Below, one piece after another: positions 6,436 to 34,489 of a stretch of DNA of 64,000 bases. A program made the position numbers and the translations under genes. The notes below the pieces were generated by a model. The model saw only the letters and a list, made by a program, of their open reading frames with translations, was not told the origin of the DNA and did not search any database. Where the stretch lies: assembly GCA_038890815.1 (NCBI GenBank), contig JAWAFC010000002.1, forward strand, positions 41,067-105,066, given 5' to 3'. Within the stretch, counting starts at the first letter, position 1. Each line of letters opens with the position of its first letter. This DNA is from Candidatus Micrarchaeia archaeon (GTDB taxonomy: Archaea; Micrarchaeota; Micrarchaeia; Burarchaeales; JACRGF01).

Positions 6436-7071
6436 ATGTGGGGGGAGCTCGAGCTGCTCATCCTGCTCGCCACAGCGGGCGCTGCGGAGGGATGGGCGCG
6501 CACGACGACGAGGGAGATTGCCGGAAAGGCTGGGGCGAGCCAGCAGAGCGCCTCGCGGTGGCTCGCCAGGTTGGAGAGAGCCGGACTGATTGAGAGGCGC
6601 AGGGGGGCGGTGAGGCTCACAGAAAAGGGCAGGGAAAGGCTGCGGGTCGCGCTGGCAAGCCTCAGCACGATTTTTGCAGGAAAGCGCGTGGTGTTGAGGG
6701 GGGTGGTGTTCACGGGGCTGCGCGATGGCAGGTACTACATGTCGCTCGAAGGATACAGAAAGCAGTTCGCCGAGAAACTCGGGTTCGAGCCCTATCCCGG
6801 AACGCTGAATCTCAGAATAGATGAACCTGAGAAGAAAACCCTGCTCGCGCAGCGAAGGGGCATAGAGATCGGCGGTTTCGAGCACAATGGCAGGGTGTTC
6901 GGCGCGCTCAAGGCATTTCGCGCGAGCGTGAATGGCGTTAAGGGTGCGGTGATAATTCCGGAGCGCTCGCACTATGGAAACGATGTGGTGGAAGTGATTT
7001 CCGAGCACTACCTGAGGAAAAAGCTCGGGCTGAGAGATGGTGACAGGGCGGAAGTGGTCGTCAGGGACTAG
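6436..7071 (+). CDS. ribK: CTP-dependent riboflavin kinase with N-terminal winged-HTH domain
   Basis: 211 aa. The N-terminus carries an HTH (TTREIAGKAGASQQSASRWLARLERAGLIERRR). The C-terminal domain has the PYPGTLNLRI motif characteristic of archaeal MJ0056-type riboflavin kinases. Confidence 0.75.
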   Translation: MWGELELLILLATAGAAEGWARTTTREIAGKAGASQQSASRWLARLERAGLIERRRGAVRLTEKGRERLRVALASLSTIFAGKRVVLRGVVFTGLRDGRYYMSLEGYRKQFAEKLGFEPYPGTLNLRIDEPEKKTLLAQRRGIEIGGFEHNGRVFGALKAFRASVNGVKGAVIIPERSHYGNDVVEVISEHYLRKKLGLRDGDRAEVVVRD

Positions 7072-9077: not shown

Positions 9078-9845
9078 GTGCGGCCTTTTGAAGTCGTGGC
9101 TGTGGCCTTTCTTGCAGCGCTCGCCGTGCTGCTGCAGCTTTACCGAGGTTTTTTCGGGGTACAGCTCACGAGCCTGATGTGGATTGATCTGGTCGGCGTG
9201 CCCGCGCTGCTGGCCTTTTTCCTTTTCGGGTTCGAGCACGCGCTGTACGTGAGCGTGCTGACCGCGCTGGCCGTGACCTTCGCCACGCCCGAATCCTGGC
9301 TCGGCGCGAGCGCGAAGTTTGCCGCCACAATGTGCATGCTCATTGTGCCAGCCACATACGCGCTGTATCGGAGGAATTTGGATGTGGGCATGATGGCGGC
9401 CATCCTCGTGGTCGGCACAGCCTACTCGCTGACCGCATTTGTGCTGTCGGGCGCGGTGAATCTGGCGAGCCAGGCATGGATAGAGATCACCGACCCACTT
9501 CTTCTCGGCGTGCTGCCCATACTCGCCATAGCGCTGTATGCCGTTGCGTTGCATGCCCTGTGGAGCAGGCAGAGAAGGATGTTGAGCGCGGATGAGTTCG
9601 CCGCCCCGAAAGTGCTTGCCCAGATGCTGGCCATCTCGCTCATCGTGCGAGGGCTGGTGATGATGGCTGTGTACTATTACTATGCCGGCCCACTGTTTCT
9701 CGGGCAGACAACCGAGGCGATAATGCGCGCGCTTCCCTGGGAGAGGATTTTCTTCTGGAGCGCTCTGCAGGGGAGCGTTGAGGCGCTGGTTGCCTGGGGC
9801 ATCGCCTTTCCGGCTGGTTTTCAGAAAAGATACGGAAGCTGGTGA
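9078..9845 (+). CDS. Integral membrane protein, unknown function (GTG start)
   Basis: 255 aa with 6-7 hydrophobic helices, coding-like composition, and no antisense competitor with homology. Confidence 0.45.
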   Translation: MRPFEVVAVAFLAALAVLLQLYRGFFGVQLTSLMWIDLVGVPALLAFFLFGFEHALYVSVLTALAVTFATPESWLGASAKFAATMCMLIVPATYALYRRNLDVGMMAAILVVGTAYSLTAFVLSGAVNLASQAWIEITDPLLLGVLPILAIALYAVALHALWSRQRRMLSADEFAAPKVLAQMLAISLIVRGLVMMAVYYYYAGPLFLGQTTEAIMRALPWERIFFWSALQGSVEALVAWGIAFPAGFQKRYGSW

Positions 9846-13618: not shown

Positions 13619-14109
13619 TGTTCGCGGGCATAGACCTGGCGGCGAAAGAGAAAAATCCTTCCGCAGCCTGCCTGCTGGGCAGGAGGGTGCAATGCGCCAC
13701 GCTCCACTCCGACAGGGAGATAATTGCATGGGCGGCGGCCGCAAGGCCCGCGCTCATCGCGCTTGATGCGCCGCTCTCTCTTCCAAGCAAAGGGAGCCTG
13801 CGGGAAGTTGAGAGGGAGTTGATCGCGCGCGGCCTGCGCGTTTTTCCAATTCGGGGGGCCATGCGCGCGCTGGCGAGAAGGGGGATGAGGCTGAGAAGAA
13901 AGCTCGCTGCCCTCGGCATACGGGTCATCGAGGTGCACCCGCGCTCCTCCCTGCTGGCACTCCGTCGACTCGGTCAAAACATCCGCTTTCCTGCGGCCTG
14001 CAGGAGCGAGCACGAGAGGGATGCCTGGCTGGCCGCACTCACGGCAAAGCTTTTTGCCAAAGGGAAGTGTGAGGTGATAGGCAGGGCATTCGCACTGCCC
14101 AGTGCCTAG
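13619..14109 (+). CDS. DUF429-like (RNase-H-fold, predicted nuclease) protein; start uncertain (GTG 13619 proposed)
   Basis: VFAGIDLAAKEKNPSAACLLG...IALDAPLSLP resembles the DUF429 N-terminal catalytic block. A TTTTATTTG/TTAAAAAA box at 13591-13613 directly precedes the GTG. The track ORF starting at 13450 overlaps a convergent gene. Confidence 0.4.
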
Positions 14110-14219
14110 GGCGAGATTTGAACTCGCGACTTCCAGATTTCCCGTCATCGCCCGGGGCTCGGCACTCACATCGCGTGCGATATGAGTCTGGCGCTCTAAC
14201 CAGGCTGAGCTACCTAGGC
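14103..14219 (-). tRNA. tRNA-Met (CAU), elongator-type (G1:C72), with ~41-nt intron at canonical 37/38 position. Could alternatively be tRNA-Ile2 (CAU).
   Basis: Hand-folded. Acceptor GCCUAGG/CCUAGGC with discriminator A; D arm GCUC-AGCCUGGUUAG-AGCG; anticodon stem CCAGA/UCUGG with loop CUCAUA+intron; T arm GCGAG-UUCAAAU-CUCGC. No encoded CCA. Confidence 0.75.
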
Positions 14220-16362: not shown

Positions 16363-19300
16363 TCAGCTCCTCCCCTCCAGCAGCGCTGCAATCTCCCTCG
16401 CTGCCTCGCTCATCGCGATGAGCACAAACCCCATATCCTCCTGCGGCTTTATCAATGTTATGAGGATGGCCATGCGACCGGCTGCGAGCAACACGAGCCG
16501 GCCCTCTTTCGTGGCGATGATGACATCTTTGACCGCCCCGCGGTGCAGCTCGCTCGAGACCATCTCGGACTTCGCCGCAATGCGGGCCGCCATGGCTGCT
16601 ATGCTCTCGGCATTCATCTCTAGCGGCAGCGTGCTGGCTATCATGAGCCCATCTCGCCGCACCACGGCCGCGGCCTCAATCTTCTGCGAGGCCACGAGCC
16701 GCTGCAGTATGACCTCGAACTGGAACTTTGAGACGGGTGCGGGCCTGAGGCGCACGAGCGCGTTGTTTTCTATGACAAAGCTTTCGGCCGGGTGCTCGGC
16801 CAAATATCGCTCTATGGCCCACTTCCTCCATTTTTCGGGCACGGCCACCAGCATCGACTCAGTGACGGTATCCTGTCTGCGCAACAGGGAGGCGATGTGC
16901 GCGCTCCAGGCAGGCCAGTTGGACAGCATGGCGAGCTTTTCGCGCAGGCTCGCCAGCGCGCCCTCGGCGGCCGACAGCGCGGCCTCTATCTGCTCGCGCA
17001 CGCCTTCGACGCTGTCGAGGGCAGACAGAGCTGCGCGCAGGCGCTCCAGGTCGATGGCATACAACGTCTCGTGCTCGATGCCTACATCAATGCCTTCGGC
17101 AAGACACCTGTTGATCAGCCCATCGGCTTCCTTCAATGTCTGCTCGAGCGAGGCCAGCCTGCCCTGTAGCGCCTCAAATGCCTCAAGTCTTTCGGCCATG
17201 CCCTTCTCGAGCGCTGTGGCCCTCTCGACAGCGGCGTCTATGTCTTTCGCGACCGGTTCACGCGCCTTGAGCGCGGCGCGCAACCTCTCAAGGTTGATCG
17301 ACCTCGCGGCTGTTTCCTCCCGCCATGCGCTGAGACCGACTTTTTTTGCTTTGGCGATCATTTCCTCTACGCGGCTCAGCGCTGCAGCCGCCAGCGCGAT
17401 GCGGTCGGCCTGATTGCGAAAATCTTCAATGACATCGCCGATGTGCGCCTCCAGCCTCTCAAAGGAATTCTCTGTGGCCGTCAGCAGCTCATCGGCGGCC
17501 GCGAACTTCCCGGCCCTGAATAGCTCGCGCACGCGGGCCATCGCGCCCTCCAGATCGAGCGCGCCGACTTCCTTCGCCTCTGCGCTCAGGTCTAACCCAA
17601 GCTTTGCTCCCTGCGCGAGCATGTGTTGGATCACATCGATGCGCTTGGCCAGAATGTCGCGCCTTTCGGTGAGGCCCCTGAAGGCCTCGAGCTTGTCACG
17701 CAAGAGAGGTTTGACCTTGTCATAGCGCGAGGCCTCGGCCTCGAGCGACTTCGCCGCTTCATCGAATGCCCTGCGGCCGGCGGCATCGATGATGTCGGGC
17801 AGCGCGGCCTCTATTTCCGACAGCGTCCTTTCCTCGGCAGTCGTATCCAACCAGCCGCGCGCGGGCTCCAGCTCCTTCCTATCGCCCTCAATGGCCCTGT
17901 GCAGCGCCTCGGCCTTCTCCCGGATCTTGGCGGCCACATCGGACTTGCAATAGCCGCACACATCGCTCACCACGCTTATTGAGCGGCCACATTCCGGGCA
18001 CCGGAATGTCCTGCCCAGCAAGAGCTTGCGCTCCTCGCCTTTCTTCGTCGCAGCCTGGGCGAGCGAGGTCAGCTCGGCCAGCTTTTGGCTGAGGATGGTT
18101 TCGGCTTTGGCCAGCTCATCGGCGCTCCACGCTCTCTTCGCCTCCTCCAGCGCAGCGCTGGCTGGCGAGGCCGTGAGAGCCTTTTGTTCCTCCCTTATGT
18201 CAGCTCCGATTTTTTCTGCCACCTCAAGCGCCGAGCGCGCGGCCGTCTCGGCCTTCTGCACTTTCTCGGCAAGGCCTAACAGCCTCTCCTGCGCGGCCAG
18301 CTTTGCTTCAAGTGCGGCCTTCGCCCTGTCGACCGCGCTGCGCGCCCTTTGCAATTCTATGTTGGCCTGGGCGAGGTTGGCAGCTCTGCAGGCCGCCTCG
18401 CAGGCATCGAGAATGGCGAGCGCGCCACGCGCGGCCTTCTCTTCGGCATCGAACACAAAGCCCTGCCGGCGCGGCTCACGTGTACGCTCGAGCAGCAGCT
18501 CGAGCGACTCGCGCGCGCTCTTGGCCGCCTCGAGGATCTGCGCTTCGTACATGACGGCGCGCACGCCAGTCGGCAGAGGCTTCTCGTAATACCGCGGGCC
18601 CAGCACCGCGCCCTTACAGAAGTCCGCAATCAGGAAGTATAGGGAGAGGAGGCCCAGAAAGATGGAGAACGAGCCAGTGGTTTTGATTAGATCGGCGTTC
18701 AGCGCTTGTAGGAGATCGCTCTCGGCCGTGAGAGGTTGCGGGGGAGGAGCAGTGAGGTAGATGGCCGCAAGCCCGAGGATGGTGAGGCTCATTCCGATTG
18801 CCAGGTAGGCGCCTCTCTGCGTGCCCCCGTGGCCCGCAAATGCATAGATGGCCTCCTTGATGTCCTTTCTGGTGCGCACGGCATTCACGAGAGCGAGGAT
18901 GAACGAAATTCCGCTCCACACTAGCCACAGCGCGACAAGCATGGCTGCGGCAACGATGCCTATGGCCACATGGAAGTTGGAGAGCGAGATGAGGGAGGAC
19001 AGCATGCCCGAGTAAATCCCCTTGACGAGGATGAGCAGGGGCGAGGCCATGGGCTCAAGGCGCGTGAGCGAGAGCTGGGGTTTGCTGAGCCCTTGCGCCC
19101 ACGCCAGCCAGCCTTCGGCTGGCTCGCGGACATCCCTGATGAGGTATACGATTTCGCTCTCGCCCGCCCGCCCCCCGATGTTGCTTTGCCTCCAGCTGAC
19201 AACGAAAGGTGGGCGTGCCGAGATGCCGGTGTAATTCATTCCAAACTCGATTTGGGATAGCTCGGATGCCAAGGGCACGGTTTCGATGAGTGTGAGGTCG

Positions 19301-20180: not shown

Positions 20181-20290
20181 GCGGGGGTGCCGGAGCCTGG
20201 TCAATCGGGCAGGCCTTAGGATTCGATGGCTGAAGGATGAGAAAGCCTGTGCGCTTAGGCGCTGCAAGAGTTCAAATCTCTTCCCCCGCA
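20181..20290 (+). tRNA. tRNA-Leu (UAG) with ~23-nt intron at 37/38 and long variable arm
   Basis: Acceptor GCGGGGG/CCCCCGC+A; anticodon stem CAGGC/GCCUG with loop CUUAGG[intron]A; variable arm UGCGCUUAGGCGCUGCA; T arm AAGAG-UUCAAAU-CUCUU. No CCA. Confidence 0.75.
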
Positions 20291-20493: not shown

Positions 20494-20583
20494 GCCCCAG
20501 TAGCTCAGCGGTAGAACGGCGTTCCGCCAGAGAGCGCTCGCCTTGTAAGCGAGATGTCGGGAGTTCAAATCTCCCCTGGGGCT
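20494..20583 (+). tRNA. tRNA-Thr (UGU) with a ~16-nt non-canonical intron in the D-loop/D-stem junction
   Basis: Acceptor GCCCCAG/CUGGGGC+U; anticodon arm CUCGC-CUUGUAA-GCGAG; T arm GGGAG-UUCAAAU-CUCCC. About 16 extra nt (ACGGCGUUCCGCCAGA, containing the GGCG-UUC-CGCC hairpin) sit between D-loop and D-stem 3' strand. A TATA-like gttttataac lies at 20481-20490. Confidence 0.65.
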
Positions 20584-24486: not shown

Positions 24487-24636
24487 GGGGAAAATTTCTG
24501 GAAAGCTAATAAAGTTTTTTCGGAAAATTGCTTCATGTTAACAAGGGCCGATGTGAACGCGCTGGTTTTCACAGCCACAATGGCTGCCTCCTTTTTGCTG
24601 TTCATCCTACTTCTGAGAGCGCTATTCGGCTAAGCC

Positions 24637-25030
24637 TTATCAGAACCAATCGATGACTTCGTCGCTCGTAATAGGAACCTACGGTTCCTATTACCTCCCT
24701 TTTTATTTGCGCGAGGCTCGCTCCTCGTCGAATCGTTGGTTCCGATACCTCCAAACCGCGGGAACCTACGGTTCCCCCAGTTCCAGGTTCCTCCTGACCC
24801 CTCCCTTTTCCATCAATGCTTTTATCCGAGGGGGGAAGGTCAAGGACGAAGGGGGGATACTTCCCCCCTTTGTCTTATCAGAACCGCCAGCGCGGTTCCG
24901 ATACCTCCAGCAACCATTTTCCACCAATGCTTTATCCGAGGGGGGAAGGTCAAGGACGAAGGGGGGAAACCTCCCCCCTTTGTCTAGGGAAGGTCAAGGA
25001 CGAAGGGGGGATACTTCCCCCCTTTGTCTA
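24637..25030. repeat. Hairpin-rich composite repeat element, copy A (~394 bp), with an internally triplicated ~48-bp unit. It abuts the 3' end of tRNA-Thr(GGU).
   Basis: It shares modules with copy B at 33673-33980: ttatcagaaccaa..cg...cttc.tcgctcg.aataggaacc(tac/gta)ggttcctattacctccctttttatttgcgcgaggctcgctcctcgtc...tcgttggttccgat; atcagaaccgccagcgcggttccgatacctccagcaacc; and gaggggggaaggtc[a/t]aggacgaaggggggatacttcccccctttgtct (three copies in A, one in B). Confidence 0.75.
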
Positions 25031-25152
25031 AGCCCCTGGCGAGGATTGAACTCGCGACCTTGTGCTGTATGGCTTCTCGTTGGATGCTACCATGCACACG
25101 CTCTTTCGTGGAACCCGCTTTCCGCGTGGCTCTACCACTGAGCTACAGGGGC
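25031..25152 (-). tRNA. tRNA-Thr (GGU) with two introns: ~29 nt between D-arm and anticodon stem (non-canonical) and ~21 nt at 37/38
   Basis: The 122-nt gene hand-folds to a 72-nt mature tRNA. Acceptor GCCCCUG/CAGGGGC+U; D arm GCUC-AGUGGUA-GAGC; anticodon stem UGUGC/GCACA with loop AUGGUA[intron]A; T arm GCGAG-UUCAAUC-CUCGC. Confidence 0.65.
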
Positions 25153-33486: not shown

Positions 33487-33672
33487 TCAGAGCGCATCCG
33501 CAACAGCAAAAGATCGTGGCGCAATCCATTTAAACCTCGCCCGTGTAAAATGTTCGGTCAGCGGCCATAGGGGAGGGGCCAGACCCGAACCCATTCCGAA
33601 CTCGGCAGTGAATCCCTCCCACGATGTCGCTTGTACTGCCATGCGGCGGGAAAGCGCATTGCTGCTGGCCAT

Positions 33673-33980
33673 TATCAGAACCAACCGACGGCTTCCTCGC
33701 TCGCAATAGGAACCGTAGGTTCCTATTACCTCCCTTTTTATTTGCGCGAGGCTCGCTCCTCGTCATATCGTTGGTTCCGATCGGAACCGCCAGCGCGGTT
33801 CCGATACCTTCAAACCGCGGAAGGGCTCCGCCCCTCCCCAGTTCCAGGCTCCTCCTGACCCACCCCAATCAGAACCGCCAGCGCGGTTCCGATACCTCCA
33901 GCAACCCCTTTTCTATCCTTTATCCCCGAAGAGGGGGGAAGGTCTAGGACGAAGGGGGGATACTTCCCCCCTTTGTCTAG
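33673..33980. repeat. Hairpin-rich composite repeat element, copy B (~308 bp), in the same orientation as copy A
   Basis: See copy A. It shares >80% identical modules in the same order, with a single copy of the terminal ~48-bp unit. It lies in the intergenic space between two minus-strand genes. Confidence 0.75.
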
Positions 33981-33982
33981 GG

Positions 33983-34489
33983 TCATTGCGCTTTCAGCTG
34001 CAATTCTCCGACCGCTATGCGAACCTCTTCCGGCATTATTGTGAAATGGTGGCGGATGAAGAGAACGCCCTCGAAGCTCTCGTTTGTGTTGAATTGCCTG
34101 TTCTCGCCCGCCTCGTTTCGGCAAGGCACGGGCACAAGGTCGGTGGCTCCTGCTTGTGGGATGGACTTGTTCATCTTTGTCCATTCAGCAGCGGGGAGCA
34201 GACGCACATCGCGCGCCTTGCTCGAGCAGTACAGGCCCGTCACGACTATCTCGCCTGGCATGGCATTCCTCACCCTCAGCGTGAGGTAGCCGTCCGTTGA
34301 TAGCTTGGCTGAACAGCTCAAGCCTGGCGGCAACAGGCACTCCTGCGAGATATTTTTGTCGGCCACTCCGGCGCACTCGCTCAGGCTATCGGCGAGCGAG
34401 CCATTCAGACAGACAAAACTACCCTGAGGCGCTCCGGTGCATCCAAGCAGGATGCCAAGCAGCAGCACAGCGGCCAGCCCTCTCATCAT
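33983..34489 (-). CDS. Secreted lipoprotein-like protein, unknown function
   Basis: Signal MMRGLAAVLLLGILLGC (lipobox-like LLGC), with several Cys and N-x-S/T sequons. Confidence 0.45.
   Translation of the reverse strand: MMRGLAAVLLLGILLGCTGAPQGSFVCLNGSLADSLSECAGVADKNISQECLLPPGLSCSAKLSTDGYLTLRVRNAMPGEIVVTGLYCSSKARDVRLLPAAEWTKMNKSIPQAGATDLVPVPCRNEAGENRQFNTNESFEGVLFIRHHFTIMPEEVRIAVGELQLKAQ

Follow-up and report, generated by a model that had tools for sequence, protein, structure and literature searches.

The element analysed here, which we call copy A, is a non-coding, hairpin-rich stretch of 394 bp located at positions 24637–25030 of a 64,000-nucleotide window (assembly GCA_038890815.1, contig JAWAFC010000002.1, positions 41,067–105,066) from the genome of a Candidatus Micrarchaeia archaeon. 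The term window denotes this whole stretch, and positions given without a contig name refer to it. Copy A fills the space between two genes. Just to its left lies the stop codon TAA (24631–24633) of a small open reading frame (ORF; 24535–24633, + strand) for a hydrophobic peptide of 32 aa. This ORF is called as a gene on the Logan contig L023 and is kept in JAWCPB01, a Candidatus Micrarchaeia metagenome-assembled genome (MAG; isolate JZ-2_201808_bins_178, assembly GCA_038870455.1), which is the closest genome available and of which about 72 kb were sampled. To the right lies a gene for tRNA-Thr(GGU) (25031–25152, − strand) with a 29-nt intron in the D-arm and a 21-nt canonical intron. Rfam reports it at 46 bits over model positions 1–71 with two insertions of 30 and 24 nt, and ARAGORN calls it on the sequence from which the introns have been removed in silico. 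A first-pass annotation of this DNA, made by a model from the letters alone, had placed the end of the element at the 3′ end of this tRNA, and our analysis agrees with that placement. The heptamer CTAAGCC flanks the element as a direct repeat (24630–24636 and 25028–25034, the right copy overlapping the last 4 nt of the tRNA) and forms a putative target-site duplication of which 5–7 bp are attributable to the target.

RNA folding of the + strand of copy A gives a minimum free energy of −185.7 kcal/mol, against −133.4 ± 5.5 kcal/mol for shuffled sequences (z = −9.6), and the − strand is also well folded (z = −7.0), which bears out the earlier description of the stretch as hairpin-rich and non-coding. 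On the + strand the element reads as a string of modules that we name T-long, C, L, G, T-short, L′, G and G′. Module T-long (24637–24752) consists of an outer stem TATCAGAACCAA...TTGGTTCCGATA with the tail CCTCC and encloses two inner hairpins; the same outer stem recurs in other copies around four different interiors. The first inner hairpin (24668–24694) has the perfect 12-bp stem that had been reported (arms 24668–24679 and 24683–24694), and the reported T-tract ctccctttttatttg is found directly behind it at 24695–24709. Hairpin and tail CTCCCTTTTTATTTG together (24668–24709) constitute the strongest predicted terminator-like site for the upstream small ORF. The second inner hairpin, cgagg-ctcgct-cctcg, is located at 24712–24727. 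Module C (24754–24801) is made of the linker CCGAACCGCG, the hairpin GGGAACC-TAC-GGTTCCC and the linker CCAGTTCCAGGTTCCTCCTGACCCC; it is followed by the linker L (CCCTTTTCCATCAATGCTTTTATCC, 24803–24827) and by the first copy of module G (24828–24875), in which GAGGGGGGAAGGTCAAGGAC precedes a 13-bp G6/C6 hairpin (24845–24874). Module T-short (24876–24915) has the form TATCAGAACCGC-CAGC-GCGGTTCCGATA followed by CCTCCAGCAACC. After a second, shortened L linker (24916–24937) come the second copy of module G (24938–24985), with the loop AAACCT, and a 5′-truncated third copy (24987–25029) in tandem with it (period 44).

All the hairpins listed in the first-pass annotation are present, but the loop of gaaccgc...gcggttc is CAGC, 4 nt in length, and not cag. 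Similarly, the terminal unit that had been described as tandemly triplicated does occur three times, but only the last two occurrences are in tandem; the first lies 110 nt upstream beyond another hairpin module and the third is without its first 5 nt. Tandem Repeats Finder detects only a two-copy tandem of 44 nt, and the unit spacings of 110 and 44 nt are in keeping with the earlier view that the element is not CRISPR-like. The overlapping ORF at 24653–25141, which crosses both the repeats and the tRNA, is missing at the corresponding site of the relative and is spurious, as had been assumed. The linker L is a hairpin-less variant of the 5′ part of a further module, the H cassette described below. 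Its motif (CCATCAATGC at 24809–24818 and CCACCAATGC at 24921–24930) departs from the H motif through transitions at each of the two CpG sites, as though the linker had once been the 5′ part of an H cassette and had decayed over time.

A second copy in the same orientation, copy B, is located at 33671–33980 and starts at the 3′ end of the 5S rRNA gene (33557–33670, + strand; Rfam 63 bits). Its module string is T-long, T-short′, C2, T-short, L-like and G, and it also folds more stably than shuffled sequences (z = −7.0). Module T-long (33671–33781) again contains a hairpin (33703–33729) followed by a T-tract (33730–33744). The extra T-short module (33779–33812) is not found at this position in copy A, and the indel is bounded by the direct repeat GGTTCCGAT. 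In module C2 (33813–33861) the linkers are those of module C while the hairpin is a different one, GGAAGGGC-TCC-GCCCCTCC. After the second T-short module (33867–33906) and the L-like linker, module G (33931–33978) is 100% identical to the G modules of the MAG loci L010, L011 and L014, and ends 4 nt before the stop codon of a convergent gene of 167 aa (33983–34486, − strand). Copies A and B thus share ordered and co-oriented modules, and they differ by gains and losses of whole modules.

The window and the MAG are from congeneric genomes, with 90% (PurA) and 86% (T2SS-F) protein identity and 79–87% identity of orthologous DNA. Comparison of the window and the sampled 72 kb of the MAG with themselves by BLAST reveals 13 intergenic islands of 115–515 bp, plus copies located in introns. 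Two of the islands are in the window and at least 11 in the approximately 72 kb of the MAG, so that the element belongs to a dispersed non-coding family with many more copies in the related genome, in line with the earlier suggestion of a repeat family. In every one of the 13 islands the modules are all co-oriented and follow the same order, T, C or P, L, G, an optional T-L-G repeat and (H-K)n, with G present in one or two copies per run and the G-G dimers arranged head-to-tail. Family-wide, module T has the outer stem TATCAGAACC...GGTTCCGATA followed by CCTCC and either a short interior or one of several long ones. Module C or P is a hairpin between the linker CCGAACC and the linker CCAGTTCCAGGTTCCTCCTGACCCC or a variant of it, L is a T-rich linker, and G is GAGGGGGGAAGGTCNAGGAC followed by the G6/C6 hairpin. 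Module H is CCGTCAACGC followed by a T-run/A-run hairpin and GGGTTG, and K is a small GC hairpin. The hairpins are joined by nearly invariant pyrimidine-rich linkers. The 5′ start of the element is variable (T, P or C), and the 3′ end is common. Contigs of the short-read assemblies of both genomes end in the element (L023, L036, L007, L012 and L013). Two Logan contigs of run SRR27730023 that carry window genes both end in this way, and such an end is seen on the Logan contig with the other neighbour gene of copy B. The copy number in the MAGs is therefore probably underestimated.

The family appears to be confined to this lineage. A scan of 185,579 species genomes (one per species) with a G6-hairpin pattern returned nine loci with 11 matches, all in JAWCPB01; the other hits were isolated hairpins. 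Candidate members from non-Micrarchaeia genomes were all hairpin-only and were rejected, as were those from the metagenome scan with the G6 pattern, where only single hairpin-only chance hits were obtained. With five module patterns in IMG/VR, three gave no match, one a single hairpin-only hit, and one 18-mer eight chance hits without hairpin context, and blastn against PLSDB and INPHARED gave no match to the element. Rfam 15 recognises only the tRNA and 5S genes at gathering and E-value thresholds, and within the element only sub-threshold hairpin look-alikes. There is accordingly no match to a catalogued RNA family or to a deposited mobile element, and our literature search turned up no account of repeats of this kind from Micrarchaeota or from other DPANN archaea. 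A gene-terminal hairpin on an Aquificaceae MAG contig (L006 2126–2160, gaggggggtcgaaggggggatacttccccccttcgtttt) is near-identical to the G hairpin and shares the G-run in front of it as well. The bacterial contig is AT-rich, a T-run follows the hairpin, and the likeness probably represents convergence on a G6/C6 terminator.

Copy A is polymorphic between the two genomes and was gained or lost after the two sister species had separated. Occupied and orthologous sites could be set against each other at three places, and the genomes differ at all of them. At the orthologous site of the MAG (L024) the element is absent, and the stop codon of the 32-aa ORF directly abuts the 3′ end of tRNA-Thr (TTCGTTTAA joined to AGCCCCTGG). 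This empty site has one copy of the repeat (TTTAA/AGCCCC), where the window has CTAAGCC, the 394 bp of the element, and CTAAGCC. Both the insertion polymorphism and a short flanking duplication are thus seen at this site, and the duplication of 5–7 bp has left both flanking genes intact. The reverse situation is also found: the MAG carries an element of 115 bp at the 5′ end of tRNA-Leu(UAG), with a zinc-ribbon gene of 50 aa (probably L40e) on the other side of it, and the window has none there. At this second of the two insertion-polymorphic sites the tRNA-Leu(UAG) gene is inverted between the genomes and contains a 23-nt intron in the window but no intron in the MAG. Near copy B, the neighbouring T2SS-F gene has its ortholog in the MAG, but synteny is lost from about 33470 onwards, where the 5S gene and copy B follow. 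In the MAG (L025 5222) this place is taken by an HD-domain gene, located 27 nt from the T2SS-F gene.

The flanking duplications differ among members of the family, being 5–7 bp at copy A, 46 bp at L003 and not recognisable at the other copies. The L003 duplication (6607–6652 and 6774–6819) is perfect and surrounds a 121-bp element. This element is located 46 bp inside the 3′ end of the gene for the large subunit of DNA polymerase II (PolD), and the duplication restores the end of the reading frame and the stop codon. The duplication is far longer than a usual target-site duplication. A homolog search for the corresponding empty site gave no close ortholog, the best being 66% identical.

Composite stretches of the element are 92–95% identical between the two genomes over 116–156 nt, and single modules are 100% identical over 40–51 nt. 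As an example, module C of copy A is 100% identical to L007 303–353 and L012 100–150. These values (92–100%) exceed the identity of orthologous gene DNA (79–87%), and the chance of 51 identical positions out of 51 at 87% identity is about 8e-4. Taken together with the differences in occupancy, these similarities indicate activity, exchange or strong constraint after the divergence of the species.

Where G is the terminal module, 0–7 nt separate it from the 3′ end of an opposite-strand gene or tRNA (6 of 6 cases), and where T is terminal, it follows the 3′ end of a co-directional gene at a distance of 0–6 nt (4 of 4). Copies A and B each adjoin gene 3′ ends on both sides. Ends of stable-RNA genes (tRNA, tRNA fragment, 5S) are abutted by 8 of about 22 assessable element ends, where about 10% would be expected (p about 9e-4). 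The earlier proposal that tRNA 3′ ends are the target therefore stands in so far as the ends of stable-RNA genes are enriched, but tRNA 5′ ends, the 5S gene and stop codons of protein genes are abutted as well. In compact genomes, selection alone could explain much of this pattern.

Archaeal transcription termination is mainly oligo-T-dependent, and the T-runs of the element are strongly polarised. The region of copy A has 11 terminator-like sites (a hairpin plus T's) on the + strand, where 1.2 would be expected, and its − strand has none. Over all islands, runs of at least four T's number 29 on the + strand and 9 on the − strand, all nine of the latter stemming from the arms of H. A T5 run is found 60 nt past the stop codon of the small ORF and another (33735–33739) about 65 nt past the end of the 5S gene. 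The T5 tract at this distance into the + strand argues against a full-length + strand RNA, which bears on the earlier suggestion of a structured small-RNA module. By a hand tally, the strand free of T-runs is the sense strand for 7 of 9 adjacent stable-RNA genes. Taken as sequence signals, these asymmetries suggest that the element might act as a one-way 3′-end cassette. What recalls intrinsic terminators is the hairpin with its T-rich tail, confined to a single strand and placed immediately behind the 3′ ends of genes; a simple terminator, however, would not be a multi-module repeat of 300–400 bp that is 92–100% identical across loci and species.

The hairpins of the family are preserved, either through compensatory changes or through the swapping of whole stems. 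At four variable stem positions of the H hairpin, each with 2–4 pair types, 37 of 40 position pairs in ten distinct copies are paired within a copy; combining arms from different copies lowers this to 50%. Both the interior of T and the C/P hairpin are replaced wholesale between linkers that stay identical, as seen for the hairpin of module C, which is swapped for a different one in copy B, L013 and L024, and in L012 an H cassette exactly substitutes for the interior of the T-long stem. Wholesale replacement of this kind points to exchange of cassettes by recombination and not to slow compensatory drift. The stem of the G hairpin is invariant, with variation only in the loop and one upstream base.

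We consider, with a probability of roughly one half, that copy A is one insertion of a lineage-specific, non-coding, non-autonomous, modular interspersed repeat that is still turning over, and an archaeal counterpart of the bacterial mosaics of the BOX and BIME (bacterial interspersed mosaic element) type. The composite would be copied from a donor copy as a unit, or as a unit with a variable 5′ part, the non-autonomous element being mobilised in trans by some enzyme. After insertion, it might be remodelled by recombination between short motifs (GAACC/GGTTCC, GGTTCCGAT) together with local tandem duplication, and it would persist only at harmless places, that is, at gene 3′ ends, in the flanks of tRNA and 5S genes and in tRNA introns. 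On the + strand, the hairpins and the T5 run could stop transcription of the upstream gene. The − strand, having no T-run, would allow read-through and would present a G6/C6 hairpin 0–7 nt behind the 3′ end of the convergent gene.

Several observations weigh against this interpretation. No transposase, integrase or reverse-transcriptase Pfam domain is found in the 40 ORFs of the window or in the gene tables of L023–L025. The element is without terminal inverted repeats, inverted repeats being present only within modules, and its left end TTATCAGAACCAATCG and right end GGGGGGATACTTCCCCCCTTTGTCT are not complementary. The inconsistent duplications, and the variable 5′ starts combined with a common 3′ end, make a poor fit to a classical transposase. 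The presence and absence of copy A could also mean that the other lineage has lost the element by a precise deletion between its 7-bp repeats, and the distant Micrarchaeota genome L027, not being syntenic, provides no outgroup. As to function, the role of terminator or insulator is predicted from sequence signals only, and the stem mismatches favour no single RNA strand (by hand count, the G·U wobble is on the − strand in five cases and on the + strand in two).

The H cassette is found in tRNA introns as well as in intergenic arrays. In the MAG, H cassettes are located in both the D-arm intron and the canonical intron of tRNA-Thr(GGU), in the D-arm intron of tRNA-Thr(UGU), with a sequence identical to that of tRNA-Thr(GGU), and in the D-arm intron of a further tRNA (L009). 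The gene for tRNA-Val(CAC) (L013 1079–1263, + strand) contains a canonical intron of 113 nt made of two H cassettes and one K module, all reverse-complemented (rcH-rcK-rcH), which is the unit of the intergenic arrays L010–L012; this gene was missed by ARAGORN and Rfam until splicing in silico, which restores the tRNA. All six of these intronic H cassettes run antisense to the element's + orientation. In the window, the orthologous tRNA-Thr introns are shorter and without the H hairpin. In L027 (PurA 60% identical, 46% GC) the family is not present, yet the multi-intron tRNAs share the design of CGTTAACG, a T-rich/A-rich hairpin and GGTT. The presence of this design without the intergenic family marks the intron form as ancient and the intergenic expansion as specific to the high-GC genus. 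The L027 tRNA genes at 9078–9365 and 18930–19148 each have several introns, made up of long AT-rich palindromes (ttttctttctttt...aaaagaaagaaaa) beside the conserved motif CGTTAACG, and the palindromes recur in different tRNA genes.

It is possible, and we put it forward tentatively, that the H(-K) cassette is itself mobile and moves among tRNA introns, the hairpin loops of other modules and the intergenic mosaics. The same DNA would then enlarge, and perhaps add, tRNA introns and build intergenic repeats. Element-mediated recombination might in that case lead to gain or loss of introns, to inversion of tRNA genes and possibly to split tRNA genes, and the cassette would offer a handle at the level of sequence on how archaeal tRNA introns spread. 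A candidate for such a split gene is seen at L010 1319–1358 (+ strand), where the 5′ half of tRNA-Arg(CCG), comprising the acceptor strand, D-arm, and anticodon stem and loop, runs into an rcH-rcK-rcH array and a reverse-complemented G module. No 3′ half was found in the DNA sampled, and Rfam does not call the 5′ half; it may be a split tRNA gene or the relic of a disrupted one.

These intron data also bear on the chief rival of the insertion model, namely that the element is debris of tRNA loci, in which H-K cassettes from introns and pieces of leaders and trailers have been scattered and joined by illegitimate or short-homology recombination, along with disruption, inversion and duplication of tRNA genes, and with no dedicated mobility system. 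That the H cassette of the intergenic arrays also fills tRNA introns (both of Thr(GGU), and those of Thr(UGU), the further tRNA and Val(CAC)), the last exactly as in L010–L012, is what this model would lead one to expect, and so is the orphan tRNA-Arg half continuous with such an array. The inverted tRNA-Leu beside an element, the break of synteny at the 5S gene and copy B, the short direct repeats that bound indels, and the distant relative with the older intron form but without the intergenic family agree with it too. However, the introns contain no modules other than H and K; T, C/P and G were in no case found inside a tRNA gene, and copy A has no H hairpin at all. A multi-module block of 394 bp in a spacer of zero length, bordered by a clean short duplication, resembles a single insertion, and near-identical modules across species are hard to obtain from random debris. 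We judge this explanation unlikely.

A second alternative, which seems to us quite improbable, is that the modules are selected RNA or DNA structures, either 3′-end, processing or stability signals for tRNA, 5S and mRNA, or arrays of sites bound by a protein with specificity for GGAACC/GGTTCC and the G6 hairpin, and that they are kept by selection together with concerted evolution and not by selfish spread. Conservation between species above that of coding DNA, stems preserved by compensation or swapping, the strict strand polarity of the T-runs and the precise juxtaposition to gene 3′ ends would all follow from such a role, as would the enrichment at stable-RNA gene ends and the tendency of the T-run-free strand to be their sense strand. 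But the element is missing from five of the six tRNAs of the window and from most genes, and orthologous sites differ in occupancy, which means that no given gene needs it. In addition, module number and order vary freely, and Rfam is without a match.

Two other models are very unlikely. [quoted passage not shown] The MITE-like character proposed in the first-pass annotation is loosely supported, because the family is multi-copy and insertion-polymorphic, and the element is indeed short and non-coding with a 5–7 bp duplication at copy A and TA dinucleotides at both ends of copies A and B. The ends, however, do not form inverted repeats (left end, TTATCAGAACC...; right end, ...CCCCCCTTTGTCT), duplication lengths are inconsistent, a common 3′ end is combined with 5′ starts in T, P or C, and no transposase is found in the window or the annotated loci. 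The second, the scar of a site-specific integrating plasmid or virus that targets the 3′ ends of tRNA and other genes and leaves remnants of att sites, could draw on the adjoining tRNA 3′ ends, on the perfect 46-bp PolD duplication of att-like length at L003 and on the fact that tRNA-targeting integrative elements are known to disrupt archaeal tRNA genes (PMC3293823), but it has little to recommend it given modules without tRNA-derived sequence, a family located beside different tRNAs, the 5S gene and protein genes, viral contigs, phages and plasmids without a match, and no integrase nearby.

Three further ideas were discarded. Derivation from, or mimicry of, the 3′ end of 16S rRNA (GGAACCTGCGG...GATCACCTCC) is not significant, the best 14-mer having E = 0.02 and a similar 13-mer being present outside the elements. 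A relation of the left flank of copy A to the 5S 3′ end is a chance similarity, since in the MAG, which has no element at this site, the small ORF ends in the same conserved stretch. Readings as C/D-box, ORB-like (origin recognition box) or Helitron-like elements do not fit in defining motifs or polarity, as judged by eye.

The family can be compared with several known systems. BOX elements of Streptococcus pneumoniae (boxA-boxB(n)-boxC) are likewise modular, non-coding, intergenic and strongly folding, have variable internal tandem modules, encode no protein and have no known dedicated transposase, and may affect neighbouring transcripts. Unlike the present family, they are bacterial, and their boxA and boxC ends are partly complementary (inverted ends), whereas here the ends are unrelated, all modules are co-oriented and one cassette is common to tRNA introns. 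Archaeal MITEs, such as SM1–SM4 of Sulfolobus and the haloarchaeal palindrome-associated transposable elements (PATEs), are also small, non-autonomous, multi-copy and insertion-polymorphic. They have, however, inverted or subterminal hairpin ends derived from a recognisable insertion sequence and a fixed target duplication or none, in contrast to our family, which has no inverted ends and for which no parent insertion sequence was identified.

Repetitive extragenic palindromes (REPs) and BIMEs of Proteobacteria share with our family short GC-rich palindromes that combine with other motifs into mosaics at gene 3′ ends and between convergent genes, where termination and mRNA stabilisation have been proposed as their roles (PMC2817692, PMC3733652). 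The G hairpin matches the dimensions reported for CGTC REPs, with a stem of 9 bp whose first two pairs are A-T, a loop of 4 nt, and CGTC/TGTC on the flanks. Yet the tetranucleotide tag is unpaired in REPs and paired here, and REPs alternate in orientation with head-to-tail dimers being rare (PMC3733652), whereas the dimers of our 13 islands are all head-to-tail. REP super-families have been catalogued only in bacteria (PMC3733652). No Y1_Tnp match, which would mark a REP-associated tyrosine transposase (RAYT) of the IS200/IS605 type, is found among the ORFs of the window.

A further archaeal parallel is offered by tRNA introns with the bulge-helix-bulge (BHB) motif, since H(-K) is tRNA-intron content here, an identical intron is present in two isoacceptors, and intron size and presence vary between congeners. 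It differs in that copies A and B are located outside the RNA genes (tRNA-Thr, 5S) and that T, C/P and G never occur in introns. A 'transposition' of BHB tRNA introns has been proposed in Thermoproteales (reviewed in PMC4090602 and PMC4033280), and disruption of tRNA genes by mobile elements for Caldiarchaeum (PMC3293823). A splicing endonuclease of broad specificity has been described for Micrarchaeum (PMC3239211).

The family described here is, in our assessment, undescribed, and its host is a hot-spring Micrarchaeia genus with small genomes. The genomes of DPANN archaea are among the smallest and most compact on record, and non-coding mosaic repeats of 100–500 bp that are still turning over are unexpected in such a streamlined genome. 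To our knowledge, descriptions of mosaic repeats of the BOX or BIME type come almost exclusively from bacteria. Assemblies from short reads are broken by the present repeats, which also coincide with a synteny breakpoint and with a tRNA inversion between sister species. A cassette common to tRNA introns, in a lineage known for unusual introns and for a splicing endonuclease of broad specificity, makes a testable system for the origin and movement of archaeal tRNA introns. If the strand asymmetry is functional, the element would give genomes that have hardly any intergenic space a portable means of stopping transcription in one direction.

A few tRNA genes of the window deserve a separate mention. 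ARAGORN predicts a tRNA-Trp(CCA) of 90 nt at 20494–20583 (+ strand), which after removal of an 18-nt D-arm intron becomes a normal tRNA-Thr(UGU). The intron is located at the same position as the first intron of tRNA-Thr(GGU), which marks the Trp call as an artefact; its counterpart in the MAG is 31 nt longer, with an H cassette identical to that of tRNA-Thr(GGU). The window gene for tRNA-Leu(UAG), with its 23-nt canonical intron, is located at 20181–20290 (+ strand) and was overlooked by ARAGORN and by Rfam at the gathering threshold; its anticodon stem shows a compensatory change from C-G to G-C between the window and the MAG. Another intron-containing tRNA at 14103–14219 (− strand) is found by Rfam (60.8 bits) but not by ARAGORN.

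Elsewhere in the window, the region of about 36000–63000 is lower in GC content (45–53%, against about 60%) and encodes glycosyltransferases, sugar-nucleotide enzymes, three asparagine-synthase paralogues and a polysaccharide flippase, and it looks like a surface-glycan gene island.

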